NCBI GenBank assembly: GCA_045863395.1 | Contig: BTVJ01000032.1 | Span: forward strand, 18,159 to 82,158 | Reading direction: 5' to 3' | Length of the DNA: 64,000 bases | From: Myxococcales bacterium | GTDB taxonomy: Bacteria > Myxococcota_A > UBA9042 > JABWCM01 > BTVJ01 | Shown here: positions 1 to 20,593 of the stretch, one piece after another | How positions within the stretch are numbered: position 1 is the stretch's first letter | How the letters are laid out: every line of letters begins with the position of its first letter | Notes under the pieces: generated by a model | Database searches by the model: none | Seen by the model: only the letters and a program-made list of their open reading frames with translations | What the model was told of the DNA's origin: nothing | Position numbers and translations under genes: made by a program

Positions 1-1727
1 CCGACCCGCTCGGCGAGGCGCGGCAAGCGCTCGATGAGCGGCGCCGCGGCCTCGGGGGGCAGCTCGTGGGGTCGAGTCGCCAGCTCCCGGACCAACCGGA
101 CGAGCACGGGAGGCACGCGAAGCAGCACCACGCGGTCTCCCCCCTCGGGCAGCCACAGGGCCCGCCCGCTGTCCGCACGGGAGAGCGGCTCCCAGGCCTC
201 CCGGGGAGTGACCACGGTGTCGCCCAGGCGCACCAGGATGCGGATGGCCTCCCCATCCCGCTCCGTGACAAGGGACGCGTCCTCGCGGACCAGGGGGACG
301 GGCGCTTTCCCCTTGTGGCGGAAGATCATGGGATGGCCGACCAGCAGATCGACGGCGTGGAGCGTCGCCCCGAGTCCGCAGTCGAAGGGACCCGCGGCGC
401 CGCGTGGCAGCACCAGGTCCAGCGCGTGGGCCTCGGCGGGGGTGAGCTCGACTCCGCCAAGCTCCGTGCGCCCCACCCGGGACACCTTGTAGCCCCCGCC
501 CTTCTTCGCAGGACTTGCGAGGGCCGGTCGCACCCGCGGCTGGACGCCCGAGTCGTCGACGATGAAGGCCATACGCCCCTCGGCCACCGCAGGGGCCTTG
601 GCGTCCAGGCAGCGGTCCAGCGCGGCCAGCGTCCGCTCCCAGACGGGGGCCCCGACGGCTGCGAAGAACTTCACGGCGAGGTCCGGGTTGTCGGGGCCGC
701 CCGCCAGGATCAGGGCAGACTCCACGGCGCCCAGCAGCACCTGGCACTTGCGCTCCTGACTCTGGCAGCCACACTGAAGCACAGGGAACGCCCCGGCCTC
801 GCCAAACGTGAAGTACGCGCGCCCTCCAGGGTGCCCGGCGCAGCCACGCTCGCGGCTCGACTCGTAGCTGAGGCGCGGGGGATCCAGCTCGATGGTGAGG
901 CGACCGGCGGGGGCGCTAGGGAGCGGGGGGAGGAGCGCCCGCAGCCGCGCCCGCTCCGCCTCCAGCGCGTCGTAGATGCGCGCCCCCACGGGATCCGCGG
1001 GCCTCGCGAGCCGCGCCAGGCGCTCCCGCTCGGCGTCCTCGACGGCCCGCCGCATGGTGGGCCGCGCGACGAGCCACTTGCAGACCGCCGCCTGGACCTC
1101 CTTCAGGTCGCGCGTCGTGGCGTTCGGCAGCGCGATGATCTCGATGACCGTCCGGGAGTCGTAGGCGGCAAACCAATGGGCGCTGCCCGCGAGGCCCAGC
1201 TCGCTGGCGATGTGGCGCACGGACCGCTCCGCCTCCTCGCTGACCCCGGCCCAGCGCGCCCAGGCTCCCGTGGCCGCCTGGGACGTGCCCGGCAACGGTG
1301 GGGTCGGCGGAGCCGCGGCCACCACGGCGGCCCAGCGCCCGAGGAATTCTCCGTTCAAGGTCGCCCCCGCAGCACGCCGCGGCCCGAGGGCCACCGTCCC
1401 CCCATCGCGCACGATGTCGCGACCAAGCGCCTCCCACAGGAGGAGGGTCGCCGCCGCGTGGGCGCAGGGCGCCGCACCGCAGTCGCAGGCCGCGGCCAGC
1501 GCCAGGCCCGGCCGGAGCCCCACGGAGCACCGGTAGACGCGCCGATTCTGCGCCGCGACCACCCCGACGAGCCGAAACCGCTCGGTCGTGACGGTCTGCA
1601 CCGCGCCATCCAGCGCCAGCCGAGCCGCAGCCGCGAGCACGGCGGCCCCCACGGAGGGCGCGAGGTCCTCCGCCAGCTCCATCAAGCGCTCCTGCACCGC
1701 CCGCATCGCCTCTTCTTTAGTCGCCAT
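1..1727 (-). CDS. SWIM zinc-finger-like protein, partial (C-terminus lies beyond the window start)
   Basis: ATG at 1727..1725 (plus-strand CAT at 1725-1727). Reverse-strand translation begins MATKEEAMRAVQERLMELAEDL and stays open to position 1; it is absent from the ORF track, consistent with having no in-window stop. Around residues 80-95 it contains YRCSVGLRPGLALAAACDCGAAPCAH, a CxCx4CxH SWIM-like motif. It is in the same frame as the stop of the upstream 1842..5867 gene, 114 bp downstream. The long plus-strand ORF 66..1859 is its antisense shadow. No clear Shine-Dalgarno. Confidence 0.45.
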   Translation of the reverse strand, partial: MATKEEAMRAVQERLMELAEDLAPSVGAAVLAAAARLALDGAVQTVTTERFRLVGVVAAQNRRVYRCSVGLRPGLALAAACDCGAAPCAHAAATLLLWEALGRDIVRDGGTVALGPRRAAGATLNGEFLGRWAAVVAAAPPTPPLPGTSQAATGAWARWAGVSEEAERSVRHIASELGLAGSAHWFAAYDSRTVIEIIALPNATTRDLKEVQAAVCKWLVARPTMRRAVEDAERERLARLARPADPVGARIYDALEAERARLRALLPPLPSAPAGRLTIELDPPRLSYESSRERGCAGHPGGRAYFTFGEAGAFPVLQCGCQSQERKCQVLLGAVESALILAGGPDNPDLAVKFFAAVGAPVWERTLAALDRCLDAKAPAVAEGRMAFIVDDSGVQPRVRPALASPAKKGGGYKVSRVGRTELGGVELTPAEAHALDLVLPRGAAGPFDCGLGATLHAVDLLVGHPMIFRHKGKAPVPLVREDASLVTERDGEAIRILVRLGDTVVTPREAWEPLSRADSGRALWLPEGGDRVVLLRVPPVLVRLVRELATRPHELPPEAAAPLIERLPRLAERV

Positions 1728-1841
1728 GGGCGCAACCCATGGCACAGCGGCAGGGGCGGGGTCAATGGGAAATGCAGGTGGTCGGGGGCACACGCCGCAG
1801 GCATGAGCGCCGACCCGACCCTGAGCGACCGCCTCGCCGGA

Positions 1842-4800
1842 TCAGGGACCCTGGTCTGAAGGCCCCTCCTCGTCCGCCCCCCGTTCGTCGGGGGGCTCCC
1901 CCTCCCCCACGTCGAACGCCGAGTACCGCCCCGTCGTCGCCTGCGCCATGAGGCCCGCGGCCTCCAGCGCCTGTGTCAAGGTGAAGGGCCAGGCGAGGTC
2001 CGTGGTGCGGCACTCGATGGGGCCGCCGGGGTCGTCCAGCCTCCCCTCGAGCCATGCGTAGAGCCCCCGCCGCCCGACCCGGCGCTCGATGGCGTCCATC
2101 AGCATGTAGCCGACCTTGTACTCGTTCCAGGGGCGACCATCGTCGGGCTGCATGGTCCCGCTGAGGCGGCGGGACAGGAGAAACTGATGGTCCGCCCAGG
2201 TGGCGTGGCCTTCGATGACGAGCTTCCCCTCGAAGTACCGCTGGGCCTCCGGCGACTCGACGTGGCGCCCGCGGTCGAACAGCCCGGCCTGATGCTGCCA
2301 GTTGTGGGTGTACTCGTGGAGGATGACCTCGCAGATCCAGTCGTCGGAGGGGTGGGGGCGCACGACCACGCGGTTGTCCGTCGGGTAGTAGTAGCCCCAG
2401 ACCGAGCCGGGAAAGTCGGGCGCGGCGCCCCAGGTGGCGGGACCCACCCAGGCCGGGTCCAGCACCATCTCGGGCGCGAGCAGGCGGGTCCACTCGCCGT
2501 CCGCATACCCACCGGCCTCCGTGCCGATCATCAAGGCCCGCAGGCGCTCCAGCCGGTGGGGGGCCGCCAGGGTCGGGTCATCGTCGGCGAGGGTCCGAGC
2601 CTCGCGGAGCAGCTCCTCCGTGACGGAGGTCGGGTCCCGCCCGAGCAGCCCGCAGACCAGCTCGAAGGCCGCCCAGCGCGAGACCACGTCCGCCTCGGTG
2701 AAGGTGCGGCGGTCTCCCGCGCCCCACGCCAGGAGCGAGATGGTCCCGAGGCCGCCACAGCACGCGGCGCAGCCGTCGGCGCACGCACAGGTCGCGAGCC
2801 TCCGGGCCATCCACCACAGCAGGTCGTCGACGGCGCCGGCGTCACCGAAGACGTCCCGCTCCAGGGAGTCGGCGGCGCCCCAATCGTCCGCCCAGAGGGG
2901 GTAGATCAGGATGCGAGCGCCGGCGCCCGACACCGCGACCACCCGGAGGGTGTCGTCGAAGAGCAGGTACTCGCGGCGAAGCCGGGCGGCCAGCAGGCGT
3001 GCCAGGCCGCGGACGCCGGCGGCGCTCCGGGCGGGATCGCCCGGGAGGTCCACCCCGCCGAGGAAGAGGTGCAGCGCTGGCGTGGACACGGTCCGGGACG
3101 GCGGCGCGTCGGCCAGCCCACTGTGGCGCATGAAGCCGTCGTCCTCCACGAGCCGCTCCGTGGTGGAGACCACGTCCCGAAGCGCTTCCGAGAGCCGGAC
3201 GGGCCACCGCCCCACGGCGAGCGTCACGGACGGGTCCGCCTCGGGGGCGGCGACCGTGAGGCGCCAGGCACGGGCGGGTCGCGCGGAGACTCCACTGGCG
3301 GGGAGGAGCCCCTCCAGGGGGACCGCCGCGAGCGCGTCCGGCTCGACCACATCGGCGCGCAGCGTCGTCTCGACGCGGGCGAGGCGCCGGTCCACCTCCA
3401 GGTCGAGCTTCATGGTCTGGCTGGCGACCAGGAGCCGCCCCACCGCGCCGGGCCGCGGTGCGGGCAGAGGCTCCCGGCGCCGCACCCGCACCGAGTTTGG
3501 CGCGTAGCGGAGCACGACGCCCGGGTGCAGATCGATGAACACGCGCGCCGCGTCCACGTGGTCGGCGAGCCGCGGAGTGCGCGCCGCGGGACCGCCCGCC
3601 GTCTCGTCCCAGACCTCCAGGGTCTCCGCCGTCGAGCAGGACCAGGGGACGGGCCACGCGTCGCCCGTCAGCGCCGGGTCCCGGCGCACGTAGGAAGCGA
3701 CGAGGCGCGGCTCAGCGACGGTGGGGCCTGGCTCGAAGACCTGCACGAGGGCGATGCGCCCCTCGCGCACCCACCGCTCCAGAACCGGCGCCGCCACCTC
3801 CCGCGTGAACGCCGCGAGCAGCCGGTCCGCCGGGATGGGGTGCCCGCCGAAGTCGCCGAACAGCCTGCCCAGCTCGTGCAGGACCAGGTCGGCGCCCGGG
3901 GTAGGCAAGAGCGCGCTCGGCCCGCGGAGCGCGTCCGACGGGGAGCCCGGCCAGGTCCCGTCCCCCATCTCCCGCAAGGTCTCCAGGTCGTCGGGGGACG
4001 GCGTGGCGAGCAGGATCAGGGCGCCACCGTCCACCAGCGCCGCCCGGAGCGGAGCCAGGGTGGCCTCCGGGATGGGGCCCGCGCCGAGCAGGATGACCAC
4101 GTCCCACTGGGCGGCCCGATCGACGGCCACGTGCGCGCTGGAGAGGAAGTCCCAGGCGAGGGAGGGCGCCACACCGGCTCCGCTGGCCACGGCCTCCACG
4201 ACCTGGTCGCGCAGGCGGCTGCGGGCCTCGGGGCCGAGCAGGGGCAACGGATCCACGAGGGCCAGGCGCGGCGGCCGCTGGTCTTCCGCGTGGAGGCGGC
4301 TCCAGCAGCGCCCGATCTCGACGAGGACGGAGTGGACCTCGCCCATGTAGCTGCCCCGCGCGAACGTAGGACGCTCCGCAGCGGAGTCCACCAGCTCCAT
4401 GGGCGCCATCCAGCCGACGACCGTGCTCGCGCCCACCCAGGAGAGCAGAGAGACCGTCTCCACGTGGGCCTCGCCCAGCAGGTACTTGGCGAAGGCGTCC
4501 TGGTTCTGCATGGGCGGCAGGATCAGGACCACCGTCGGGTTGGCTCCGAGGGCCGCTGCGGTGATCCGTAGCCGCGCGAGGGCCACCCGCAGGCGGAGGA
4601 GCTCGTGGCGAGGCAGGCGCTCCGGGTGGTCGACGACGACGAACCGGAGGCGCCGCAGGAAGGCGGCCGCCGCCCCGTTGGCGTGGGCGAGGACCCCCCG
4701 GCTGAGCATCAGGGCGTCTGCGTAGAGCACGTCGACGCCCGTGAGCTCCACGCTCGAGGCTGCCCCGTAGAGGGCCCTGTCGCACACGTGGCCATCGAGC

Positions 4801-5867
4801 CCCGCCGCCGACAGCAGCCGCCGGAGGACGACCCGCGGGTGCCTCACGGCGCCGCGACCACGCAGCCGCGTGTCGGCGTCCACGCCATCGTCGGGCCCCG
4901 ATGGCGTCACGCAGAACAGCGCGCCTTCCCGGTGCAGGATCGCGCCGAGGGCCACGAGGCAGGCGACCGTGGTCCGCCCCGAGCCCACGTCGCCCATGAG
5001 GATGACGTCTCGCGCGTCGCGGTGCTGGTCGGCCGCGAGCAGGGCGTCGACGGCCCGCCCCTGCCCCTCGGTGAGCGCAAGGCCTGCGGCGCGCACCACC
5101 TGGTCGAGGCGCGGCCACCTCCGTAAGAGCGCAGCGAGGGGCTCCCCGGAGGCCTCGGCGACCCGCTGCACCGCGCTGAGGTGGCGCTCCACCACGACCT
5201 GCCGCCGGTAGAGGCTCGACGCCCGGAGCAGGCGCAGGAGCTCCTCCGCCGTGGCCTGGCGGGGCGGATCCGGCACCGTGGGGGTCACCGCCGTGGCAGC
5301 GGCGGGCTCCTCCAGCACCCGCGGCAGCGGGATGAGCGTAGCGATCCCCAGCGCCCCGAAGAACAGCGCCACCCCGAACACCAAGGGCGCCGCGGCGAGC
5401 GTCACCAGGCTCGTCAAGAGGATGGGGACGCTGAGGGCGCCGGCGAGCGCGAGGGCGAAGCCGGCTAAGAGGTGCAGCAGCGCGGCTCCGGCGGTACCGT
5501 GGGACGCGCGGCGGCAGAAGCGCCCGAAGCCCGAGGTCTCGCCACGGGTGAGCGCGAGGGAGCTCGCGGCCGGGGCGGCGGCCATCCACCCGAGGCCGAT
5601 GGCGAGTATGAAGAGCGCTGCGCAGAGGAATCCCGCCCACAGGATCCGCGCCCCGCGTGCGACGTCCCCCGCCTGGGACCGGGAGCCGACGAAGCCCTCG
5701 AGCGCCGCGCGCGCCCACTCGGGGAGCAGCGACGCCAGCGCCGCGTCCGCCTCCGCCAGCACGGCGACGGCGAGCAGGACCCCGATGGCCAGCGCGAACA
5801 GACCGCTGCCCACCAGCACGACCTTCGCGCGCCAGGCCCGGACCGAGGCGTCGAGGGTGGCGCTCAT
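1842..5867 (-). CDS. Membrane-anchored multidomain protein (1341 aa): N-terminal transmembrane (TM) helices, P-loop-like segment, Cys-cluster, C-terminal HExxH motif
   Basis: ATG at 5867 (plus CAT 5865-5867), with a GGAGG 8 nt upstream. ATGA overlap with the stop of the 5864..8053 gene. The first ~190 aa hold 3-4 hydrophobic helices, then ILMGDVGSGRTTVA (Walker-A-like with R in place of K), VVVDHPERL, RRLATCACADGCAACCGG (Cys cluster) and VILHEYTHNWQH (HExxH). The ORF-track ORF 1842..6095 contains it; the upstream Arg/Pro-rich 76 aa were judged non-coding. Confidence 0.7.
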   Translation of the reverse strand: MSATLDASVRAWRAKVVLVGSGLFALAIGVLLAVAVLAEADAALASLLPEWARAALEGFVGSRSQAGDVARGARILWAGFLCAALFILAIGLGWMAAAPAASSLALTRGETSGFGRFCRRASHGTAGAALLHLLAGFALALAGALSVPILLTSLVTLAAAPLVFGVALFFGALGIATLIPLPRVLEEPAAATAVTPTVPDPPRQATAEELLRLLRASSLYRRQVVVERHLSAVQRVAEASGEPLAALLRRWPRLDQVVRAAGLALTEGQGRAVDALLAADQHRDARDVILMGDVGSGRTTVACLVALGAILHREGALFCVTPSGPDDGVDADTRLRGRGAVRHPRVVLRRLLSAAGLDGHVCDRALYGAASSVELTGVDVLYADALMLSRGVLAHANGAAAAFLRRLRFVVVDHPERLPRHELLRLRVALARLRITAAALGANPTVVLILPPMQNQDAFAKYLLGEAHVETVSLLSWVGASTVVGWMAPMELVDSAAERPTFARGSYMGEVHSVLVEIGRCWSRLHAEDQRPPRLALVDPLPLLGPEARSRLRDQVVEAVASGAGVAPSLAWDFLSSAHVAVDRAAQWDVVILLGAGPIPEATLAPLRAALVDGGALILLATPSPDDLETLREMGDGTWPGSPSDALRGPSALLPTPGADLVLHELGRLFGDFGGHPIPADRLLAAFTREVAAPVLERWVREGRIALVQVFEPGPTVAEPRLVASYVRRDPALTGDAWPVPWSCSTAETLEVWDETAGGPAARTPRLADHVDAARVFIDLHPGVVLRYAPNSVRVRRREPLPAPRPGAVGRLLVASQTMKLDLEVDRRLARVETTLRADVVEPDALAAVPLEGLLPASGVSARPARAWRLTVAAPEADPSVTLAVGRWPVRLSEALRDVVSTTERLVEDDGFMRHSGLADAPPSRTVSTPALHLFLGGVDLPGDPARSAAGVRGLARLLAARLRREYLLFDDTLRVVAVSGAGARILIYPLWADDWGAADSLERDVFGDAGAVDDLLWWMARRLATCACADGCAACCGGLGTISLLAWGAGDRRTFTEADVVSRWAAFELVCGLLGRDPTSVTEELLREARTLADDDPTLAAPHRLERLRALMIGTEAGGYADGEWTRLLAPEMVLDPAWVGPATWGAAPDFPGSVWGYYYPTDNRVVVRPHPSDDWICEVILHEYTHNWQHQAGLFDRGRHVESPEAQRYFEGKLVIEGHATWADHQFLLSRRLSGTMQPDDGRPWNEYKVGYMLMDAIERRVGRRGLYAWLEGRLDDPGGPIECRTTDLAWPFTLTQALEAAGLMAQATTGRYSAFDVGEGEPPDERGADEEGPSDQGP

Positions 5868-8053: not shown

Positions 8054-8068
8054 GGCGCCCCTCCGCGC

Positions 8069-11000
8069 TCAGCCTGCCCCGACGCGCAGCACGGCGGGGA
8101 TCTCCGCGCCGGCGAGGTTCACGAGCTCCCGCGCCAGGTCGTCCATGGCGCGCGCCTGCCGGTCCAGCGCCTGGCGGTGGAGCGGGTCCACGACGGCGCT
8201 CGCTCGCTGGCGCAGAGCGGCGGCCAGATCCTGGAGCGTGTCGGCGGGGGCACCCCACCCGGCGCTGGCCGCCTGGGCCCGCAGCGATTCCCAGAGCAGC
8301 CCCCGGAGCCCGTCGCGCAGGTTGGTGGCCTCGGTCGTGCTCCCGCCGAGCCAGTCCAGGAGCTCGACCTCGCCGGCCGGACCGACCTGACCCGCGGCAA
8401 ACGCCCGCCGCCCCGCAGCGGCGTCGCCCGGGATGCGCCGCGTCAAGGTCCACGGCCCGCCCTCGCTCCGCGCCAGGATCCCCTGGCCCTCTGCCAGGGC
8501 GAGCAGCGGGGCTCCCCAGTCGGTGGTGCTCCCCGTGCCGTGCAGCATGCTGCGCGCCGCCTGGGAGTACTCCCGCGTCGTGTGGGGCCAGTAGGTCTGG
8601 TCGGCGGCCGGCATGCGCTCGTAGAGGTCGTGCTCGCTCTGGAGGTTGAGATCGAAGAGGGACGCCCCGACGTGGGCCTGCGCGACGAACACCGTGCGGG
8701 GATCGATGGTGGCGCTGGCCGTCGCGTGGATGGTCGGCAGGTCGGCCCCGGCCATGTGCTGGCCATGGGCCTGGATGGCCGGCCCGATGAGGGTTGCCTC
8801 CTTCGGATAGATGACGAAGCAGTAGCGGGTCGGGACACCGCGGGCCTGCGGCCGGAGCGACCAGAACGGGGTCGCGAACGAGATCGCCTGCCCGATGCGA
8901 CCGGCGAGGTACAGGTTGCGGGCCGTGAGGCGGTCCGCCTCGGCGTCCGCGAAGGTGAGGTGCCCCATGGCCGCGGCGGCCGCCCGCCCGGCGCGCCCCT
9001 CGACCTCCTGCTCCCAGGTGGTCCGCTCCTTGCGGTCGATGGCGTCCCGCTCCGCCGTCTGAATCTGCTCGAGCCGCCGGACGAGCGCGGACGCCTCTTC
9101 GAAGAGCAGGGCGTCGATGCGGGTCTCGCTGCGCAAGGTCGCGTCGGCCCGGGCCGCGATCACACCCTCCAGGGTCTCCCGGAGGCGGTTGGCCGAGTCC
9201 GAGGCCACCTGATCCAGCGGAGTGACGCCCTGTCGCCGCCAGGCGACCAGCTCCTCCTGCTCCGCGCGCGGCAGCGCGAGGAGCGCAGCCGCGAACCGCT
9301 CGCGCAGGGGCTCCGACAGGGACCGGAGCACGGCCTCCGCCGAGGTGGAGGCGCCGCTGGCCACCCGCGCGAGGAGGCGCCGCCGCGTGGTCTCGCCCCC
9401 GCCCACGGGGATCACGGGCCGCACGGCGTTGCGGCCCGTGTCCCGGGCGCCCCTGTCCGCGCCATCGAGGGCGCTGGCCTCGGTCTCGGCCACTGCCTGG
9501 AGCTGCCCGAGCAGGCGCGGCGCCCGGAGCAGGGCGCCGAGCTGATCCGCTGCGCTCCCGAGGGCCCGCAGATAGCCGATGGCCCGGTCGTAGAGGTTGG
9601 TCACGGCGCCGATCTTTGTGTCCCACAGGTGGAAGGTGAAGAAGCGCCGGGCGTCGTCCTTCACCTCGGCGCCCAACTCCACGATCTTGCCGCGGCGGAA
9701 CAGCGACCAGAAGCCCTCGGCCTCCCGGCGGAGCGTCGTCAGCCGGGCCTGGAGGTCCAGGTTTCCGTCCTGCGGCCGGTTCAGCCACGCGCGCGTCTCG
9801 TGGATGGCGATGGAGTCCCGGTTGCGGGCCAGCTCGTCGCACAGCTCCCGGATCCACACCTGGAGCACCCCGATGGCGCCGGCGTCCACGAAGCGGCCGA
9901 CGCGCTGGTCGATGAGCCACCGGAGCCCGGCGTCCGCGGGGTTGTCAAGGTTGGGCGGGACCCGGCTCCACCGGCTCCGGGTGCCATCCAGCAGGGCGGC
10001 CGTCCGCGCCGCCGCGAGCCCCTTGACGTTGCGCTCCACCCAGTCGACGAGCTGCGAGGCGGCGGCGACGGCGTCGTCGGGCTTCTCCGCCCCGGCCAGG
10101 TTGCTCGTGACCCGGTCGAGCCCCTTCTTGAGGGCCTCGTCGTCGGGCCCGAACAGCTCGAAGACCTGGTTGAACTGGTTGCCGCCGTCCGGGCCCACCT
10201 CGCGCATGCGGAGCACGTGCTCCAGGAAGAAGTCCACGCTCGCGTCGACCGTCGCGGCCTCGGGGAGCAGCCGCTTGGTGCCGTCCGGCGCGACGTCGGC
10301 GAGGACCGCCCTCCACGGCCCGTCGGCGGCGGACAGCGCGGTGCCGGCGACCTGGGCACCCCACTCCGCGACCAGCCACTTGGTCAACTGCTGCGCGGGC
10401 ACGGCGAGGGTGACGCCGGCGAGGCTCCCGAGGCGCCGCGGGCTCGGGCTGGCGGCCCAGGAGTCGAGGAGGCGCTGGGCGTCGTCCACGCCGGCCACCA
10501 GGTTGGCGAGCCCGTGGGCCGCCATGTGGATGAGGCTCGGGTAGTCCAGGGTCTGGCCCGCCAGGTTGCGCCCCTCCAGCAGATAGGCGCCGTGCAGGGG
10601 CGGGTCGTCGGGCGACGGCGAGAAGGACCAGGTGCCCTCCGCGGCGCGGAGGGTCCGCGGCGACCGGGGACGGACTCCCGCGGCCCCGTAGCGGTTGAAC
10701 TCGTACTGGAGCTCCAGCAGGGCGCCATAGCCGTTGGCCCCCACCCGGTCCGCGAGGCGCCCCGAGTTGCCACCCCGGGTCACCGAGCCGGCGATGAACA
10801 CGCCGGTCCCGTGGACCTGGACGTTGGGCATGTGGCGCGTCACCTCGGCCCGAGCGATGGTGGCCACGTCGAGGAAGCTCCCGCCGCAGGTGCCGTTGCC
10901 CAGGCTCCCGACGACGAACACCCGCCAGTCTCCCCCCAGGGCGCCCACGCTGCGGATGTTGAGGGCGGTCACGTCGTCGAGCATGGCGCGGACGGTCGCC

Positions 11001-11344
11001 GCGACGTGGTCGGCGTAGCGAAAGGCATAGTAGCGACCGAAGGCCCGGATGGCGCCGCACCCCGAGCTGAAGTCGGTGTCGCCGCTGGGCATGAGCGTCT
11101 CGGGCCACCAGTCCAGGAGCCCCGCGACCCGCTTCTCGTGGAAGTCGTCCACGAAGCGGATCGCGTAGTTGGGGCGGAAGTGCAGGCCCGGCACCCGCCC
11201 CCCCTCCGGGGCATCCACCTTGGCGTCGATGACGCCGAGGGCCACGTGGGCGGGGACCCTGCCCCTCCACTCCTCCAGCAGGGACTTCACCCCCTTCACG
11301 ATCTGGGTCCCGGTCCCGCCCACTCCTAGAATCAAGACTGGCAT
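8069..11344 (-). CDS. FtsZ/tubulin-superfamily GTPase-domain protein (1091 aa; N-terminal tubulin-like domain, long coiled C-terminal region)
   Basis: ATG at 11344 (plus CAT 11342-11344), GGAGG 5 nt upstream, 14 bp after the stop of the vWA gene. N-terminus MPVLILGVGGTGTQIVKG (T1-loop-like GGxG). SSGCGAIRAFG is T3-like. VVGSLGNGTCGGSFLDVATI matches the FtsZ/tubulin signature GGGTG[ST]G (T4). The remaining ~800 aa are Ala/Arg/Leu-rich and helical. The ORF-track ORF 8069..11902 extends upstream into a Gly/Arg/Pro-rich region judged non-coding. Confidence 0.68.
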   Translation of the reverse strand: MPVLILGVGGTGTQIVKGVKSLLEEWRGRVPAHVALGVIDAKVDAPEGGRVPGLHFRPNYAIRFVDDFHEKRVAGLLDWWPETLMPSGDTDFSSGCGAIRAFGRYYAFRYADHVAATVRAMLDDVTALNIRSVGALGGDWRVFVVGSLGNGTCGGSFLDVATIARAEVTRHMPNVQVHGTGVFIAGSVTRGGNSGRLADRVGANGYGALLELQYEFNRYGAAGVRPRSPRTLRAAEGTWSFSPSPDDPPLHGAYLLEGRNLAGQTLDYPSLIHMAAHGLANLVAGVDDAQRLLDSWAASPSPRRLGSLAGVTLAVPAQQLTKWLVAEWGAQVAGTALSAADGPWRAVLADVAPDGTKRLLPEAATVDASVDFFLEHVLRMREVGPDGGNQFNQVFELFGPDDEALKKGLDRVTSNLAGAEKPDDAVAAASQLVDWVERNVKGLAAARTAALLDGTRSRWSRVPPNLDNPADAGLRWLIDQRVGRFVDAGAIGVLQVWIRELCDELARNRDSIAIHETRAWLNRPQDGNLDLQARLTTLRREAEGFWSLFRRGKIVELGAEVKDDARRFFTFHLWDTKIGAVTNLYDRAIGYLRALGSAADQLGALLRAPRLLGQLQAVAETEASALDGADRGARDTGRNAVRPVIPVGGGETTRRRLLARVASGASTSAEAVLRSLSEPLRERFAAALLALPRAEQEELVAWRRQGVTPLDQVASDSANRLRETLEGVIAARADATLRSETRIDALLFEEASALVRRLEQIQTAERDAIDRKERTTWEQEVEGRAGRAAAAAMGHLTFADAEADRLTARNLYLAGRIGQAISFATPFWSLRPQARGVPTRYCFVIYPKEATLIGPAIQAHGQHMAGADLPTIHATASATIDPRTVFVAQAHVGASLFDLNLQSEHDLYERMPAADQTYWPHTTREYSQAARSMLHGTGSTTDWGAPLLALAEGQGILARSEGGPWTLTRRIPGDAAAGRRAFAAGQVGPAGEVELLDWLGGSTTEATNLRDGLRGLLWESLRAQAASAGWGAPADTLQDLAAALRQRASAVVDPLHRQALDRQARAMDDLARELVNLAGAEIPAVLRVGAG

Positions 11345-11358
11345 GACGCCCTCCGGTG

Positions 11359-13734
11359 TCAGTGTTCCTCGACTCGAATCGGGTACGCGGTGGTGTCGAC
11401 CACCGACCCGCCCTGCAATTCGCGCAGCATGATCGAGCGCCCGCCGTGGCGAGCCTCGTCCAGGGTGATCACCCGCGCCTCCCGCTGGATCCGGCGCCGA
11501 GACGGGCGCCGAAGCCGCGGCAGGGGGTCCGTGTCCCCATCCAGGGACGCCTCCCGATCCAGCTCCCCTTCCCCCGCGGGCAGCGTCGCGTCCCACAGGC
11601 GGAAGGTGCCGGGCATGGACCCGGGCAGCACCCCGAGCACGGGCATGCCGCGGGCCAGGTCGCTGCCGGTGAACGCCTCGCGGGTGGCCTGGGTGAACCC
11701 GCCGGCCTGGAGGTGCACGAAGAGCGGCTGGCGGCGGATCAGCGCCCAGGCGCCCTTGAGGCCGGCGCCGTGGGCGGTGCGCAGGTCCCGATTGTCCGTC
11801 GAGGTCCCGATGAAGAGCCCCGGTGGGAGCTGCGGGCGCGTCGCCCACAGGACCGCGAGCACCAGGAGGAGGACTCCCGCGATGCCGATTGCCACCCACC
11901 ACAGCCAGAAGAGCGGCGGGGACTCGATGACCAGCGGGATCTCCACGCAGTGCTCGCCGGCGCTCGCCGCCGGAGGGACGCAGTCCGGGCAGCGCACGAG
12001 GACGGGGCGCGCGGGCATCGGGGGAGCCGCAAGCTCGGGGCGGAAGCAGGCGCGGGCGACGTAGCTGCCCGGCGGCGGGTCGAAGCCGAGGCCGAAGGCG
12101 CGCTCCCAGTGGTCTTGTCGCTCCGCGGGAGACACGACGTGGAGGTCACCGCCGCACGCCAGGTCGATGACCCCGGAGCGGGGGCCGCCAGGCACGGCGA
12201 TGATCCGGGCGGCGTCGGCCACGTCCTTGCCCGTCTCGTCGGTCAGGGTCACCCGCGTGGGGATCGTGGCGGGGCCACAGCGCTCGTCACAGGACACGCC
12301 GAGGCGGCGGCTCGCCTGCTCGTAGACGTGGAGCCAGTCTGCCCGGAGGGGGCCGAGAGGGGCGTCGGGGCGCATGGAGTCTCCGCCGACGACCGTGTAG
12401 AGGCACGGCGGAGGCGGAGGCGGAGGCGGGACATACACCTTGACGGAGACGTCGCCGAGGCGCAGGAGCCCCCCGTCGTCGTCCTGGGGCAGCACGAAGG
12501 AACTCCCTGGCCACGCGCGCTTGAGCTCGGCGCAGAGCGCGTCATGGACCAGCCGGACGGGCGCGGCGCCCTCCGGCACGTCGCCCGCGGGGAGCACCGC
12601 GGTGGTCGCGCCCTCGATGCGCGGGCGCAGGGAGCCACGCTCGAAGCGGAGTGTCTTCCGCTCGCCCTCTACTCTGCGGGGCGGAGCGGTGATCGACCAC
12701 TCGGCGGTCCGGGTGGTCCCGACCCGGACGTCCCACCGGACCTCCGCCTGGACGGCCAGGGTCGATCGGGGAGACGGGGCCGGGTCGGCAGGCTCTCCGC
12801 GACACACGAGCAGACTCGCGGCCTCGTCTGATCGAAGCCCAGCGCCGTGCCCCCGCGCCACGAGCCGCAGCGTCCGGGGCACCTCCAGCTCCACCTTGTG
12901 CCCCTCGGGCGGCTTGGTGGGGTCGTAGACCGCCGCCAACGTTGGGAGGCCAAAGAGGACGTCGTAGACCACGTGGTCGGGCGGCGGGGTGGTGCAGGCC
13001 GGATGGTCCGCGCAGTCTGGATCGTCACAGTCGGCGCGCCCGTCCCGGTCCTCGTCGATGCCGCCGGTGCAGATCTCGGGCGGCGGTGGCACGTAGACGT
13101 CGCAACGATCCCACCGCAGGCGCAGGCGCCGCTGCTGGCGTTCGACCCACTCCACGTAGGGGCGGTTGTCGAAGCCGCGCCGCACCTCTTCTTCACCGTC
13201 GGTGACCACGCAGATGTCGAAGAGGCTCGCGTCGTCGGGGATGTCCTTGTCGGTCGTGAACTCGGCGCCCAGCTCCAGCTCCGTCTTGATGACCTGGAAG
13301 ATGGAGTAGGAGATGTAGCTCTTCGGCGCGTTGTAGAGGCGCGCGTCGTCGCTGAAGGCGGCGTCGACGCGCGAGGCGGCCTCGTCGGGCAGGAGCCCCA
13401 CGGCCCCGCCGATGGGCGCGTGCTGGTCCTTGTCACCGAGCTGCCAGAAGCTCACGCGGACGTCGTCCCGCCCCCGGTGCCCAGCGAGCAGGTCCCGCGC
13501 CCGCCGTCGCGCCCCCTCCATGGCCTGCGTGAACGAGAAGGCCCGCGGCTGCCCGGTGGCGGGGTCCTTGGCCCACGACATGGAGCCGCTGCGGTCGACG
13601 AGGAAGAGGACGCGGCGCTCGGGCGCGGCGTCAGCCACGGCGGGCGCGAGGAGGGTGGACAGCACGAGGGAGGCACAGACGAGCGCCACGCGCGGCCAGC
13701 CCAGAACCCTCAGGTGTGCACCCCGCTCGACCAT
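11359..13734 (-). CDS. Secreted/membrane-anchored von Willebrand factor A (vWA) domain protein (791 aa)
   Basis: ATG at 13734 (plus CAT 13732-13734). Signal-peptide-like N-terminus MVERGAHLRVLGWPRVALVCASLVLSTLLAPAVADA. MIDAS motif RVLFLVDRSGSM...TDGEE. Cys-rich module CDVYVPPPPEICTGGIDEDRDGRADCDDPDCADHPAC and a PPPPPPPP stretch. C-proximal TM helix FWLWWVAIGIAGVLLLVLAVLW followed by a ~170-aa tail. Confidence 0.75.
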   Translation of the reverse strand: MVERGAHLRVLGWPRVALVCASLVLSTLLAPAVADAAPERRVLFLVDRSGSMSWAKDPATGQPRAFSFTQAMEGARRRARDLLAGHRGRDDVRVSFWQLGDKDQHAPIGGAVGLLPDEAASRVDAAFSDDARLYNAPKSYISYSIFQVIKTELELGAEFTTDKDIPDDASLFDICVVTDGEEEVRRGFDNRPYVEWVERQQRRLRLRWDRCDVYVPPPPEICTGGIDEDRDGRADCDDPDCADHPACTTPPPDHVVYDVLFGLPTLAAVYDPTKPPEGHKVELEVPRTLRLVARGHGAGLRSDEAASLLVCRGEPADPAPSPRSTLAVQAEVRWDVRVGTTRTAEWSITAPPRRVEGERKTLRFERGSLRPRIEGATTAVLPAGDVPEGAAPVRLVHDALCAELKRAWPGSSFVLPQDDDGGLLRLGDVSVKVYVPPPPPPPPCLYTVVGGDSMRPDAPLGPLRADWLHVYEQASRRLGVSCDERCGPATIPTRVTLTDETGKDVADAARIIAVPGGPRSGVIDLACGGDLHVVSPAERQDHWERAFGLGFDPPPGSYVARACFRPELAAPPMPARPVLVRCPDCVPPAASAGEHCVEIPLVIESPPLFWLWWVAIGIAGVLLLVLAVLWATRPQLPPGLFIGTSTDNRDLRTAHGAGLKGAWALIRRQPLFVHLQAGGFTQATREAFTGSDLARGMPVLGVLPGSMPGTFRLWDATLPAGEGELDREASLDGDTDPLPRLRRPSRRRIQREARVITLDEARHGGRSIMLRELQGGSVVDTTAYPIRVEEH

Positions 13735-13843
13735 GGCCGCGACGGTAGACCACCACGGCCAATCTGGCAAGGCGCAAGTGGCATAGAGACACAACGAGGC
13801 ACTCCTCCCGCACGGCAGCACTGTGAGCGGTTTCTGGGCGCGA

Positions 13844-16800
13844 TCATCCTCCCTCGCCCGCTGCGCCGCGGCCCTGGGCGATCAGTCCAAGGAAGATGCC
13901 ACCGAAGACCGACATGGCCGTCCACATGACGACCGCAGCGAACCAGACGTCGGACCCAAGTTGCAGCGCCCCGGCACCGGCACCGGAGAGCAAGGCGGCG
14001 TCCGTGTCACCCATCGCCACGAGGAGTCCTGCACTCTCGAGCGCCGCGATCACGACCGCAACGCCATAGACGGGAAGGATGCGCCGACCGACCAGGCCCC
14101 ACGTTCCACCGGTGGGCGACTGCACGCGCTTGCGCAGGTCGAAGGCCAGGAAGGCCAGCCCCCCAAAGAGCGCCAGCACGACCACGGAGACATAGGAGAT
14201 GCCTCCGGTCGCCGCCAGGTCGTTCCAGGTCTTTGCCAGGCTCAGCGTGAACATGCCGCCACCCAGCACGCCGGACCACAGGGGTGAAAAGCGCGCCAGC
14301 ATACCCGGCGCGTTGACCTCGGGCCGCTCCTTCTTCAGTCGCTGCTTCAGGAGGCCCGCCATGTCGAAGCGGAGCTGACGCAGCAGGAAGCCGTGGGCCT
14401 CGACCAGGAGCCTCGGGGACGCCGCTCGAAGTGCGTCTGCGGACCTGTTGTCGTTGGTTGACGGGTCGCCCACTCCCAGCACCGCACACAGCGCTGCCTC
14501 GTCGAGTGACGCGAGGGCACGCTCCAGGTCTTTGTCCGCGTTTCTGCGAACCATGACGGAATCGCGCACGGATGTCGCCCACCCGTCGAGGTCGCCCACC
14601 ATGGTCTCGAAGAGGGCCATCTCCGGCCACGCAAGCCCCGCCGAACGAAGCGCCGCGAAAAACCGCGGCAGCTCCTCCCGCATCGACTCAAGCTCGCCCG
14701 CATCCAGACGGTCCGCTTCACCTCGGGCAACGACGACCCTGAGTCTTGAAACGATATCCCTCCCCGCGGCCCGGGCATCCGCAGTGTCACCACCGAGCGC
14801 GGCTGCCCAACCCAACAACCCGGGCTCCTTGTCGGGACTCACTCCCAGAAGCCGCTCCAAGTCCCATGCCCAGTCACTGACACGGGCCCAGGTCGCGGGA
14901 TGTGCCGTCACGTCCGGGAGAGTGGGTCTTGTCTCCGGTATGGTCTGGATGGCCTCACCCAGATCGACCGCCCCCATCATGGCAAGTGCGTCGGCAACGG
15001 CGTGCAGCCGAGCGCGAAGTCGCACCCAGGCCCCTTCTGTTCCGCCCGGTCCGCCGCGGACACGCGCGGCGTCCAGCGCCCTCATCGCTCCGAGCAGCAC
15101 GTGCATCCGGGTCCCGCTCCAGGGTAGGACACTCTCTGCCTCCTCCCAGAACGAGTCGGGCGGGTCGAGGCGAAGCAACGCCCACAGGAGCCGCACACTC
15201 TGCACCACGTCGGGGACCAGCACCTCCGCGTTCTGCGGCAAACCTTCCAGGAGTGACGCGAGCCCGATTGCCGCCTGATCGATCAGGAACTTGTCGCCAT
15301 CGTCCCCTGCGTCCGCCCTCTCGCATCCCTTCGCAAGCACCGCGTGAACCGTCGCAGCCGTGACCTGGTGGTCGTGCAGGAGCCACCGGAGCCCTCCAAC
15401 ACCCGCGCTCGTGAGCCGCACTGCCAGGTCGGCGCGTCCCACCCGTCCAGCGGTCGCGTCAGGCGTGCCCCCAAGGTGCCACACATCCGGGAGCCCCGCC
15501 TCCTCCAGCAAGGCGCCCCACGGCAGATCGCGCGTCGCTGGGGCCTCGAGGAGCAACACGAGCTCCGCCACCCTCGCCGCGAGCCACAGAGGGTCGCGCA
15601 GCGCAACCACCGATGAGCGACACAGCCGGAGACGCTCGATGACCGCGTCCGCGTCTACCCGGGCCACGGCGGGCAGCCCGCGTCCGAGAGCGAGCGACGC
15701 TGCCACGTCGAACGGGGCGAGCGCCGCCACAGCGGCATCCACGTCAGGGACCGCCTCGGGGGCGTGAGCGACGACGAACGCCAGACTCACTGCGGCGGAG
15801 CACCCGAGGTCCGCCGCCGGCCCGAGACGACCCCCATGCCTGGCGAGGAGCCCGGGGCTCAGCATCGCGTCCACGACGAGCTGGCGAGCACGGGGATAGG
15901 CGGTCAACGCACGCACGAGCGCGCGCAGACCCATGTGGTGCTGGTAGCCTGGCGTGCCCTTGTGCATCAGAGTGCGGCTGAGGGCAGTGATGGCGGCAAT
16001 CCAGGGAGCCTCCCCCAGTGGACGCGTGGCAAGCTCGGCGAAACCATGGAGTGCCGCGGACTGGTCGAATGGATCCTCGGGCAGCGGTGCCGCGAGCAGG
16101 ACCTCCGCGTCCAAGCCCGGCAACGGCACACCTCGCCCAGCGAGGGCGCAACGCAGGTGGATGAAGTGACGTCTCACGTGCTTGCGGCGGAGCGGGTCAT
16201 CACCAAACCACCTCTCCACCAGCGGATCGGGGTGAGCGCCAGCGCTCAAGCGCTCGTTGGCGGCGGCGAGCTCTTCGTGGAGACTCGGGGAACGACTCGC
16301 CAGCGCAGCAAGGGCGCAGGATGCTGGAATCCACGTAGAGCGGACACGCGCGTGGAACGCCTCGCGGACGAAAGTGACAATCGGCTCAGTCGGCGGAGCC
16401 CAGCACAGCGCCAGGAGGGTCGGGGCCCATGTGAGATCTTCTCCGTCGCTCCTGCGTGGGCGCGGGACGCCCCGTGCACCAGCCGAATTGCCCTCGTCGA
16501 CCGGTCCGCGCCTGCTCACAGGCGCCGCCTGGGCGTCCGCTCCTCGGGGAGCGAACACCCACGGAAGCAGGCTCGGGTCGTCGAGCAGAACGCCGGCCCA
16601 ACTCTGCGTCACAGGGTCGAGCGTGGGCCACTGCGCCACGAGCGCTGCTCCGCTCTTTCCGACGAGCCGTACGAGCTGGGCTACGCGCCGCACGGCCTCG
16701 GACGCCGGCTTCCCGCGCAGCGGCGGTAGAGTGCGCAGCGCCGCGCGGATTCGCGACGCCCCCTCGCCCGACCCGTCCCAGCCGTCCAGCAGCGCTGCGG

Positions 16801-16852
16801 CGGCCTCGTATTCCTCAGAAGCGTCGGATATCGCGACCATGTCTGCCCTCAT
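13844..16852 (-). CDS. Large alpha-helical (HEAT/ARM-like) protein with C-terminal polytopic membrane domain (~1002 aa)
   Basis: The ORF-track ORF begins at a TTG (16912). The first ATG is at 16852 (MRADMVAISDASEEY), with an alternative ATG at 16840. About 860 aa of Leu/Ala-rich helical repeats precede 4-5 TM helices at the extreme C-terminus (GGMFTLSLA...VVVLALFGGLAFLAF...VYGVAVVIAALESAGLLVAMG...VWFAAVVMWTAMSVFGGIFLGLIA). It is the first gene of the minus-strand operon, downstream of the repeat-rich intergenic region. Confidence 0.58.
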   Translation of the reverse strand: MRADMVAISDASEEYEAAAALLDGWDGSGEGASRIRAALRTLPPLRGKPASEAVRRVAQLVRLVGKSGAALVAQWPTLDPVTQSWAGVLLDDPSLLPWVFAPRGADAQAAPVSRRGPVDEGNSAGARGVPRPRRSDGEDLTWAPTLLALCWAPPTEPIVTFVREAFHARVRSTWIPASCALAALASRSPSLHEELAAANERLSAGAHPDPLVERWFGDDPLRRKHVRRHFIHLRCALAGRGVPLPGLDAEVLLAAPLPEDPFDQSAALHGFAELATRPLGEAPWIAAITALSRTLMHKGTPGYQHHMGLRALVRALTAYPRARQLVVDAMLSPGLLARHGGRLGPAADLGCSAAVSLAFVVAHAPEAVPDVDAAVAALAPFDVAASLALGRGLPAVARVDADAVIERLRLCRSSVVALRDPLWLAARVAELVLLLEAPATRDLPWGALLEEAGLPDVWHLGGTPDATAGRVGRADLAVRLTSAGVGGLRWLLHDHQVTAATVHAVLAKGCERADAGDDGDKFLIDQAAIGLASLLEGLPQNAEVLVPDVVQSVRLLWALLRLDPPDSFWEEAESVLPWSGTRMHVLLGAMRALDAARVRGGPGGTEGAWVRLRARLHAVADALAMMGAVDLGEAIQTIPETRPTLPDVTAHPATWARVSDWAWDLERLLGVSPDKEPGLLGWAAALGGDTADARAAGRDIVSRLRVVVARGEADRLDAGELESMREELPRFFAALRSAGLAWPEMALFETMVGDLDGWATSVRDSVMVRRNADKDLERALASLDEAALCAVLGVGDPSTNDNRSADALRAASPRLLVEAHGFLLRQLRFDMAGLLKQRLKKERPEVNAPGMLARFSPLWSGVLGGGMFTLSLAKTWNDLAATGGISYVSVVVLALFGGLAFLAFDLRKRVQSPTGGTWGLVGRRILPVYGVAVVIAALESAGLLVAMGDTDAALLSGAGAGALQLGSDVWFAAVVMWTAMSVFGGIFLGLIAQGRGAAGEGG

Positions 16853-16933
16853 CTGGTCCCAACTCGCCTTTGCCTGGGTGCCGACGGTGCCACTCCCGAG
16901 TCGACGGGTCAACCCTCGTGGGTGTACTGCGGC

Positions 16934-17121
16934 CTCTTAGAGGGTGTATTCAAAATGGCCCGTCGCGAGCGCGTGGGCGCGCCCGCATGGCAAGGAGCGG
17001 GCTTCCCGACGAGGGGGCGCGTACTCGTGGTACTCGTCCCCTCGTCGGGAGGCCCGCGACGCGGCCAAGCGGGATGCGACCGCGCGCGTAGCAGGGCCAT
17101 TTTGAATACACCCTCTTAGGC
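16934..17121. repeat. Hairpin element: ~22-27-bp near-perfect terminal inverted repeats flanking a ~134-bp GC-rich core with a nested hairpin
   Basis: Left arm ctcttagagggtgtattcaaaatggcc (16934-16960); right arm ggccattttgaatacaccctcttagg (17095-17121). 22 bp are perfect, the extension has 1 mismatch. The AT-rich arm core tattcaaaatgg stands out in 70% GC DNA. Inner nested IR cccgacgaggggg...cccctcgtcggg (around 17020-17065). Confidence 0.7.
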
Positions 17122-17274
17122 GCCGGTGCATAATAACCTGATCCATCGAGGGCCCCGATGCGCCCCGCTGGCAGTCTGGCGGGACCGCAGGCAGGGCCAG
17201 GTCCTTCCAAGGTCTCGCCAGGCTGTCAGCGGGGATGCAGCGGGGGCCGAATGGCACAGGTTATTGTGCACCGG
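17121..17274. repeat. Second hairpin element directly abutting the first: 20-bp inverted repeats (1 mismatch) flanking ~114 bp
   Basis: cgccggtgcataataacctg (17121-17140) versus caggttattgtgcaccggcg (17255-17274). Both elements are followed by the pentamer cttag. Confidence 0.65.
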
Positions 17275-17536
17275 CGCCTTAGTCGTAGCGCACCTCCCCG
17301 AGGCACCTCCAGGCCCAAAGCTCCCGGGGGCCCAACGCGTGCGGGGACCACCAATCGCCAGGACCACCAGCGCACTCCCACCACCGGACCCGGGCTTGAC
17401 AGGAACGCCGTGGATGAAGCACCGTAGCGCAGTCGGCACCGTAAGCGCCCGTGCAGTAATGGCCGGTCCATTCTGCCCCTCCTGCATCCCCGCTGCAACC
17501 TGGCGATACCCTGGAAGGACGCGGCCCTGCCTGTGG
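17185..17536. repeat. ~70-bp sequence present twice in inverted orientation (~85% identity), ~213 bp apart
   Basis: The reverse complement of 17185-17254 (ccattcggcccccgctgcatccccgctgacagcctggcgagaccttggaaggacctggccctgcctgcgg) aligns with 17468-17536 (ccattctgcccctcctgcatccccgctgcaacctggcgataccctggaaggacgcggccctgcctgtgg). Compared by eye. Confidence 0.6.
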
Positions 17537-17931
17537 ATTTCCGAGGCTGCCTGCTGGGCGCGTCGAGGCTCTCGATCAATCAGGTTGTCATTTACCGGCG
17601 GCTGATTGGTCTTCGGGACCGTGTCTCAATCATGTCGGCAGAGAGGGGTCAGACCCGACGCCGGGAGCGTTCACCACGCTGGTCCGGCAAGCACATCGGA
17701 CCCCGGGCGAGGGTCCCGTGTCAGAACCGAGGTTCCGAGCGCTCTACGGAAGCGGTCTGAGCAACGGCGCTGAGCCCACGAGCGGCGGGGGGAACACACC
17801 ACGAAGAAACGGGGAGGCGACTCAGGCAGTCACGGCGCGTGAGAGACGTGTCAGACGCGGCGTCGAGATGACTCTACCGTGGAGTCATCGACGGGGCGGC
17901 CGTCGGACGGTGACCCACTCGGAGGTGTCCC

Positions 17932-20504: not shown

Positions 20505-20593
20505 ACCGCGGAGGCACCCGAACGGCCCCGCAATCCAGGGACTCTCAGACACCCGATGGACTCGTCATCGCACCACGACGCGGAGGAGCACCC

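Follow-up and report, generated by a model that had tools for sequence, protein, structure and literature searches.

A conserved four-gene module encoding a predicted FtsZl1 tubulin homologue, a vWA membrane protein, a hairpin protein and a YprA-like metallopeptidase protein in a Myxococcota genome

The window studied here, meaning the whole stretch of DNA that was analysed, comprises 64,000 nucleotides of contig BTVJ01000032.1 from a metagenome-assembled genome deposited at NCBI under the label Myxococcales bacterium. At its beginning, six genes lie on the minus strand and are named A to F in the order of their transcription. Four of them, B-C-D-E, encode a vWA membrane protein, a tubulin-like GTPase of the FtsZ-like 1 (FtsZl1) family, a protein with a transmembrane hairpin and a YprA/MrfA-like protein ending in a metallopeptidase domain (gene E has the locus tag AMXMBFR64_33250). 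The comparisons described below make us highly confident that the conserved unit is B-C-D-E, an envelope-spanning module that forms a distinct subclass of the FtsZl1 (Tubulin_2)/vWA operons.

The guanine-cytosine (GC) content of the window is about 75%, and long spurious open reading frames are therefore common. The coding frames were picked by third-position GC analysis, with one frame accepted per stretch on the minus strand. For genes A-F, both third-position GC and the translations backed the frames, which are those already given in the first-pass annotation, an earlier reading of this DNA. The third-position GC of gene A was lower and fell under the coding filter used, yet a homologue with 50% identity exists at the locus L001. 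The six genes are the following:

13844..16852, minus strand: gene A, 1002 aa, helical, with three C-terminal transmembrane helices at residues 888-991, 109 bp upstream of B
11359..13734, minus strand: gene B, 791 aa, with a predicted signal peptide, periplasmic vWA domain, beta-rich region, transmembrane helix and cytoplasmic tail of ~155 aa
8069..11344, minus strand: gene C, 1091 aa, predicted cytoplasmic FtsZl1/Tubulin_2 protein with a GTPase domain, a long helical/coiled-coil region and a C-terminal alpha/beta domain
5864..8053, minus strand: gene D, 729 aa, with a central transmembrane hairpin and both large halves predicted to be cytoplasmic
1842..5867, minus strand: gene E, 1341 aa, with four N-terminal transmembrane helices, a YprA/MrfA-like core, an MZB zinc cluster and an HExxH metallopeptidase domain
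1727 down to 3, minus strand: gene F, incomplete, running into the window edge

The junctions within the core are tight: B and C are separated by 14 bp, C and D by 15 bp, and D and E share a 4-bp ATGA overlap. C, D and E each have a GGAGG-like ribosome-binding site ahead of them. The first-pass annotation had the 14-bp junction and the overlap right, gave 13 bp for the second gap and passed over the wider spacings of 109 bp between A and B and 114 bp between E and F. The scan of positions 1-18000 for promoters and terminators yielded no definable signals and is uninformative in DNA of 75% GC.

The relatives of these genes were collected by several searches. The word-indexed protein searches returned 10 relatives for C, 4 for E and 2 for B, while the wider E family came from an exhaustive phmmer search, in which residues 230-1341 of E gave 81 matches, ~23 of them full length, among 1.84 billion representatives. 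A pattern scan of 185,579 GTDB species genomes found only 3 full-length relatives of C (L005-L007). On one strand, the genes at the loci L001, L002 and L003/L004, as well as at the three GTDB-genome loci, follow the order B-like (~750-850 aa), Tubulin_2, D-like (770-890 aa) and E-like (1363-1459 aa). The same arrangement was seen at two more E homologues (L020, L021), and the remote E relatives P0054, P0058, P0063 and P0062 (L022-L025) stand in loci composed of a vWA-like gene, a Tubulin_2 gene, a gene for a ~700-aa protein with a transmembrane hairpin and the E-like gene. Scanning metagenomes with a broad E profile added 24 loci. All nine of those with enough upstream DNA carry vWA and Tubulin_2 genes, and in all eight loci examined for it the D slot ahead of E is filled by an open reading frame of 625-810 aa with transmembrane segments around 370-550. 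The GC content of these metagenome genomes ranges from 28% to 73%. In total, the four-gene order is common to ~21 independent loci spanning 28-75% GC.

The hidden Markov models (HMMs) built for the D and E families matched only B-C-D-E loci, and that of D solely loci that also carry E. Meanwhile, the same family HMMs found no D-like or E-like genes in 12 other FtsZl1 loci (L008-L019), most of which retain the vWA gene together with different accessory genes. The absence of D and E from these 12 loci indicates that B-C-D-E is a distinct subclass of the FtsZl1-vWA operons. As only these four genes are co-conserved, gene A recurring solely in L001 and gene F nowhere else, the six-gene operon described in the first-pass annotation overstates the unit. 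That annotation held its reading to depend on a predicted tubulin fold and on co-conservation in other genomes; for the B-C-D-E core, both were found, the second as the shared order in the ~21 loci.

In several metagenome contigs, the E-like gene is followed downstream by another Tubulin_2 gene or by additional vWA genes (L031 5421-8477; L042 2354-4297; L035 7664-8956 and 11078-11902), which suggests tandem or duplicated systems. It should also be noted that L005 (CAZSAT010000029.1) is labelled 'uncultured Enterobacterales' at a GC content of 72%, which suggests a binning or labelling problem.

The product of gene C matched the Pfam family Tubulin_2 (PF13809) over residues 4-284 with 84.8 bits (cut-off 27) and an E-value of 9e-24. 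This family corresponds to FtsZl1 as defined by Makarova and Koonin in 2010 (PMC2875224). All ten full-length homologues of C, which share 28-57% identity, contain PF13809. The region assigned to the fold is as follows:

10325..11344, minus strand: tubulin/FtsZ-fold region of C, ~residues 1-340, with T1 at G7-T13, a T3-like DGCGAIRAxGR and T4 at S147-G155

The motifs GVGGTGT, SGCGAIRAFG and GSLGNGTCGGS, from which an FtsZ/tubulin-like GTPase had been proposed, are present in C, and their key residues do not vary in the alignment of 10 sequences. Invariant are G7, G9, G10, T11 and G12 of the T1-like loop and S147-L-G-N-G-T152 and G154-G155 of the T4-like loop; the T3-like residues G95-C-G-A98, R100 and G103 are conserved among the homologues. 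Given the Tubulin_2 match of E 9e-24, the observed pattern is not due to chance. In addition, G285-x-D287...R291..D294 is invariant and follows the predicted core helix, at the place where T7 is expected, and we regard it as a candidate T7-like loop, assigned by position rather than by superposition.

The AlphaFold2 model of C, built from the homologue alignment, had a mean predicted local distance difference test (pLDDT) score of 81.9. When the model was compared with the PDB using Foldseek, the top 50 matches were all tubulin or CetZ, and the best unrelated fold scored 8.7. The GTPase proposal thus found its counterpart in both the family match and the modelled fold, and we conclude that C is a tubulin-superfamily GTPase with an intact predicted GTP-binding tubulin fold. 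In the model, this fold spans ~330 residues and so extends beyond the N-terminal GTPase domain, while the FtsZl1 proteins were not alignable past helix H5 in the 2010 paper (PMC2875224). The model therefore suggests that sequence analysis had underestimated how much of the tubulin fold FtsZl1 retains, which bears on its capacity for forming GTP-dependent filaments. The rest of the modelled chain is nearly all helical at 395-830 and forms an alpha/beta domain at 839-990, and the hydropathy analysis of C showed no transmembrane helix.

Two other identities were considered for C. A paralogue of the division FtsZ was rejected, since neither an FtsZ_C domain or C-terminal peptide nor a division context of the dcw type was found; the statement of the first-pass annotation that this is not a cell-division context therefore stands. 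A partition tubulin of the TubZ/PhuZ type was rejected because tblastn with C found no match in 72,556 plasmids or 50,697 phage records. In the loci examined, where no search was made for a TubR or centromere partner, gene calling placed no small gene immediately next to C.

The gene directly upstream of C encodes the vWA protein B, for which the database holds an identical 791-aa protein (P0015). Its features are listed below:

13090..13614, minus strand: vWA domain of B, ~residues 41-215, with the metal ion-dependent adhesion site (MIDAS) D47-x-S49-x-S51, a downstream Thr and TDG
12994..13080, minus strand: acidic double-disulfide repeat of B, residues 219-247 (NCBIfam NF033662, E 6e-9)
11836..11904, minus strand: transmembrane anchor of B, residues 611-633 (hydropathy peak 2.71)

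The hydropathy analysis placed the hydrophobic segments of B at 16-34, corresponding to the signal peptide, and at 611-629. The MIDAS of the window protein reads D47-R-S49-G-S51, and the DxSxS, the downstream Thr (mostly in TY[IVM]A) and the TDG are conserved across 7 members. The Pfam VWA model gave no direct match to B at E<=0.1. Meanwhile, canonical Pfam VWA domains are present in 7 of the 10 scanned genes upstream of distant FtsZl1 genes, and hhalign aligned the N-terminal domain of B to these Pfam-verified domains with a probability of 96.5% (E 9e-10) and with the MIDAS in register. Within the module, Pfam VWA was found in the B-slot gene of the clade-II locus L024 (the clades, defined on E, are described below). 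The best PDB matches of the B domain were integrin alpha-M I-domains (E 0.011).

The NF033662 repeat is confined to the window B and to its closest relative in L001, and it scores under the whole-protein cut-off because only a single repeat is present; this Cys-rich module is consistent with a periplasmic location. A transmembrane helix occurs at the equivalent place in the B-slot proteins of L020, L023, L024 and L025, L021 being the exception. From these features, B is predicted to be a type-I membrane protein with a periplasmic, metal-dependent (MIDAS) vWA domain and a cytoplasmic tail. The signal peptide, vWA domain, Cys-rich module and anchor had all been noticed before; the description of B as secreted did not hold, as the protein appears membrane-anchored rather than free.

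Gene E is the best conserved gene of the module, with 32-58% identity within its clade, and it offers the strongest hint at function. The following features were assigned to its product:

5316..5822, minus strand: four transmembrane helices of E, residues 16-184 (hydropathy peaks 1.8-2.7)
4968..4994, minus strand: Walker A-like G-D-V-G-S-G-R-T-T, residues 292-300, carrying Arg where Lys is canonical
4620..4640, minus strand: motif II-like VVVDHPE, residues 410-416, aligning to IVIDELH (DExH) of YprA
2745..2789, minus strand: MrfA zinc-binding (MZB, DUF1998) cluster C1027-x-C1029-x3-C1033-x2-C1036, aligning to the YprA MZB
2052..2396, minus strand: metallopeptidase domain, residues 1158-1272, with H1184-E-x-x-H1188-N-W-Q and the invariant E1219

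Clade I denotes the window clade of E (7 members) and clade II its remote relatives. In clade I, the Pfam family DUF6782 (putative metallopeptidase) was found in all seven members, the window E scoring 27.1 bits against a cut-off of 27, and MZB (formerly DUF1998) in 5 of 7, with 7.8e-6 as the best value; the SprT-like model matched 2 of 7 weakly. The remote relatives show the architecture of YprA/MrfA, with Pfam DEAD, WHD_HRQ1 and MZB, and share the HExxHNWQ domain at the C-terminus. The two clades were aligned by hhalign over 969 columns with a probability of 100% (E 3.6e-47). The clade-II profile matched YprA/MrfA of B. subtilis (PDB 6ZNP) over YprA residues 45-731 with an E-value of 1.6e-78, and the pooled E profile matched 6ZNP at 5.7e-38. 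Since the clade-I profile alone gave nothing useful in the PDB, the homology to YprA was set up through clade II; the window E itself matched the NCBIfam model TIGR03817 (DECH helicase) weakly (E 2.7e-5). N-terminal transmembrane helices were seen in 6 of the 7 remote relatives examined.

The helicase motifs of E depart from those of YprA. Instead of the canonical motif I, GxGKT, all 16 aligned members have an Arg for the Lys in GSGR[ST]T (GTGRGT in one), the YprA sequence being ASGKT. Nor was the canonical DExH of motif II found: where YprA has DELH, the window clade has VVIDHPE and clade II has EDLE or DDLE. The arginines of motif VI are lost in clade II, and the window clade, judged by eye and unaligned, seems degenerate there too. 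From this degeneration, weak or no ATPase activity is predicted, and E probably binds nucleotide rather than hydrolysing it. Meanwhile, 22 sequences show no variation at C1027, C1029, C1033, C1036, H1184, E1185, H1188 and E1219. Judged by its sequence, E is a membrane-anchored derivative of the YprA family in which the zinc-protease and MZB motifs are intact. The transmembrane helices, P-loop, Cys cluster and HExxH had been picked out in the first-pass annotation, which missed the YprA/MrfA-family identity combined with a metallopeptidase. The protein P0062 (L025 8798-12811) has a Pfam VWA domain at 317-453, inserted after the DEAD region, and is without N-terminal transmembrane helices; it ties the helicase-like protein to vWA modules a second time.

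The fourth member of the module, D, has no match in Pfam, NCBIfam or the PDB and no recognisable domain or catalytic motif, and the D-family profile gave chance-level matches only when compared with the PDB. Its hairpin is located as follows:

6599..6730, minus strand: transmembrane hairpin of D, residues 442-485 (hydropathy peaks 2.06 and 2.09)

The description of D as a membrane protein was thus borne out, as was that of A as a helical protein with a C-terminal transmembrane bundle. Gene A matched no Pfam or NCBIfam family and the PDB at chance level only, and its only homologue is the one in L001, the 57%-identical relative, from the closest related Myxococcota genome. The GC content of its region (14000-17000) is 0.67-0.71, against 0.72-0.77 in the remainder of the operon; this lower value and the gap of 109 bp to B are consistent with A being a later addition. 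We conclude that A is an accessory gene specific to the Myxococcota lineage.

In F (window 3-1727, minus strand), a SWIM-like C-x-C-x5-C-x-H (CDCGAAPCAH) was seen by eye, as the first-pass annotation had proposed; no Pfam or NCBIfam family matched the protein, and its PDB matches were at chance level only. As no homologue of F stands beside the module in any other locus examined, F is an unrelated neighbour outside the system. A gene for a 918-aa TrwB/TraD/HerA-like ATPase with the domains DUF87, TrwB_AAD_bind and TraG-D_C (window 20120-22876, plus strand) lies within a few kb of gene A and is read in the opposite direction. The related Myxococcota contig has a similar ATPase gene (L001 1-1314, minus strand) at the corresponding flank of the module, beside an M48 peptidase, and its presence in both may reflect shared synteny or an extra partner.

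The genes flanking the module at the other loci were also inspected. In three loci, it adjoins known or candidate defence genes: Wadjet JetC in L006 (595-3933, E 3e-249), type III CRISPR RAMP/Csm3-like genes in L024 (1-2629) and a LeoBC-LeoA dynamin-like fusion of 1276 aa in L044 (12204-16034). MCE-type lipid-transport genes, namely MlaD and an MlaE/ABC fusion, lie in L020 (876-1514 and 14271-15719), and a PqiA fragment lies in L021 (15041-15523); among 81 flanking open reading frames from 21 loci, MlaD occurred 3 times and MlaE twice. Directly downstream of the E-like genes of two loci (one being L023 12437-14269), a pair of HD_4 hydrolase and RelA_SpoT synthetase genes hints at a possible alarmone link.

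From the GTP-binding fold of C, the MIDAS vWA domain of B, the zinc protease and zinc cluster of E and the membrane anchoring of B, D and E, we infer an envelope-spanning complex. In the explanation that we put forward, the vWA domain of B would sense a signal outside the cell, or else the helicase-like scaffold of E would sense one inside it by binding nucleic acid. The signal would lead to the GTP-dependent self-assembly of C on the membrane platform made of B, D and E, and this assembly would work as a threshold switch, by which the metallopeptidase of E, as the output, would be activated or brought into position. The helicase core of E would then probably be a nucleotide- or nucleic-acid-binding module and not a processive motor. 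Taken as a whole, that is, the identity of the module together with this mechanism, the explanation seems to us equally likely to prove right or wrong. Its functional part, in which B-C-D-E is a sensor-effector complex of the conflict or defence type whose output is a protease, is a plausible reading to which we give slightly less than an even chance.

The conflict reading draws support by analogy from the descent of E from the YprA family, whose helicases are core to DISARM, Dpd, Druantia and ARMADA (Bell et al., 2025), and from the view taken of the sister systems by Kaur et al. in 2020 (PMC7159879). The rare and patchy distribution of the family supports it too, and so do the JetC, RAMP/Csm3 and LeoBC-LeoA neighbours at some loci. 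Several observations weigh against it. The flanks are mostly housekeeping or unrelated genes, recognised defence genes being found at only 3-4 of the ~21 loci, and the recurrent MlaD, MlaE and PqiA genes suit an envelope function. The module contains no nuclease, toxin or other classical effector, and as the ATPase motifs of E look inactive, the analogy with active defence helicases may mislead. The AlphaFold2 model of E(205-1341), made from 4 sequences, was unusable (pLDDT 42.7) and was left out of the fold search. The PADLOC-DB 2.0 HMMs matched none of the components at E<=0.1, except for one spurious match at 0.038, and the literature searched yielded no experimental work on any FtsZl1 system. 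A serious rival is a machine for membrane remodelling or envelope maintenance, which goes back to the published prediction of Makarova and Koonin for FtsZl1 operons (PMC2875224). Applied to the module, C would polymerise, held in place by D and by the membrane proteins B and E, and would bend or arrange the inner membrane, for instance when vesicles form, lipids are handled or the envelope is repaired; the peptidase of E would process envelope proteins or control their quality. This reading would account for the fact that three of the four proteins are membrane-embedded while C has no other obvious anchor, for a hairpin-anchored D that has no catalytic motif, for the Mla and Pqi genes flanking several loci and for the lack of PADLOC matches. 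We nevertheless consider it less likely than the conflict reading, because it leaves the strictly co-conserved YprA-family homologue with its MZB cluster unexplained, because a family so rare and patchy, and apparently spread by horizontal transfer, would be unusual in a housekeeping role at the envelope, and because the Mla/Pqi neighbours occur at a minority of the loci only.

The helicase-like core of E and the tubulin fold of C could also be read as a membrane apparatus for DNA handling, in which C would move DNA like TubZ/PhuZ and E would act on it in segregation, uptake or conjugation-related processing. This is improbable in our judgement: the E family has Arg for the Walker A Lys and a degenerate motif II throughout, and clade II has a degenerate motif VI as well; E, like C, has no match in the plasmids searched, nor C in the phage records; the TrwB-like neighbour is limited to two related Myxococcota loci; and neither a periplasmic vWA partner nor a protease domain would be expected for DNA segregation. 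That the genes are merely adjacent and form no dedicated multi-protein system fits the lack of co-conservation of A and F and the absence of definable promoter and terminator signals. For B-E, we give it hardly any credence, as it is contradicted by the order and strand kept in the ~21 loci of such different GC content and by the short junctions with their ribosome-binding sites in the window; it stands for F and partly for A.

Within the conflict reading, we would tentatively go one step further: B-C-D-E may be a hitherto unrecognised, widespread-but-rare prokaryotic class of immune or threat-response systems in which a polymer of the tubulin-superfamily GTPase is the switch between a periplasmic vWA sensor and a membrane-anchored pseudo-helicase/metalloprotease of YprA descent, although we hold this to be the less probable outcome. 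If true, it would be the first mechanistic link of a cytoskeletal-type tubulin to the helicase lineage of DISARM, Druantia, Dpd and ARMADA. FtsZl1 is the most divergent branch of the tubulin/FtsZ superfamily, and sixteen years after its description, no experimental function was found for it in the literature searched. With only four genes and with clear sites for mutation in its GTP loops, MIDAS, MZB cysteines and HExxH, the compact subclass makes the role of FtsZl1 directly testable, and the strict synteny across very distant genomes adds to this. The helicase link ties the module to the YprA lineage, which underlies several major anti-phage systems, and indicates that the lineage lends itself to repurposing, here in a form that has a membrane anchor and a putative protease output and whose ATPase motifs are degenerate.

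The combination of a vWA protein, FtsZl1, a hairpin protein and a YprA-like peptidase appears to be undescribed in the literature searched, where no characterised tubulin/vWA/helicase system was found; a 2026 paper on Esr in Actinobacteria was set aside, since it concerns MoxR-vWA systems and not tubulin systems. In a survey of ~52,000 YprA homologues, Bell et al. (2025) linked the family with DISARM, Dpd, Druantia, ARMADA, BRIGADE and TALON; their census makes no mention of tubulin, vWA, transmembrane or peptidase-fused forms of YprA. With YprA/MrfA (COG1205), E shares the RecA1-RecA2-winged helix-MZB (DUF1998) core and the four-Cys cluster. Unlike YprA/MrfA, it has N-terminal transmembrane helices and a C-terminal metallopeptidase, and unlike in the YprA/MrfA systems, it is associated with no methyltransferase, phospholipase D (PLD) or other nuclease, or MrfB. 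The HExxH and the downstream invariant Glu are shared with the SprT-like/DUF6782 metallopeptidases; in contrast to those enzymes, the peptidase domain of E is fused to a helicase-like core and membrane-anchored.

In Zorya, a sensor complex sits in the inner membrane and, through its cytoplasmic part, probably recruits or activates effectors of the helicase type, with a nuclease as the output. The outside-in logic is alike, as an analogy only, no homology having been detected. Unlike in Zorya, there is no MotAB-like ZorAB here, the effectors would be membrane-anchored, and the output would be a protease and not a nuclease.

The closest relatives of the module are the FtsZl1-vWA operons that Makarova and Koonin predicted to be a membrane-remodelling machine (PMC2875224). 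The first-pass annotation had suspected a kinship with such operons, and the membership of C in FtsZl1, together with the vWA gene 14 bp upstream of it, bears this out. C shares with their FtsZl1 the N-terminal FtsZ-like GTPase, the long coiled-coil and the alpha-helical C-terminal region, and in their operons, as here, a vWA gene with an intact MIDAS lies directly upstream and a gene for a large membrane protein directly downstream. The layout matches both that of Plesiocystis pacifica (vWA 868 aa, FtsZl1 1079 aa, hypothetical protein 903 aa) and the actinobacterial vWA-FtsZl1-B3 triad (PMC2875224). The differences lie in the partners: the FtsZl1 neighbourhoods of 2010 list no helicase or peptidase, and this locus lacks their small 'GTPase_new', OmpA, protein kinase and B4-B6 genes. 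The identification of E with the 'GTPase_new fused to Zn-binding domain' of that paper was rejected, as the latter is a protein of ~390 aa from a different family.

Kaur, Burroughs, Iyer and Aravind (2020) described operons combining tubulin and vWA genes from Firmicutes and Actinobacteria as conflict systems centred on GAP1-N2 GTPases, and proposed for them a logic of NTP-dependent assembly and thresholding (PMC7159879). Two components are shared with the module: a tubulin homologue fused to coiled-coil/helical regions and a membrane-bound protein with an extracellular vWA and a beta-rich domain. The Kaur systems also contain a GAP1-N2 GTPase and FNIII-repeat proteins; neither was found in genes A-F of the window with Pfam and NCBIfam, the sole P-loop there being the helicase-type one in E. 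Their place is taken here by the YprA-like helicase-peptidase E and the hairpin protein D.

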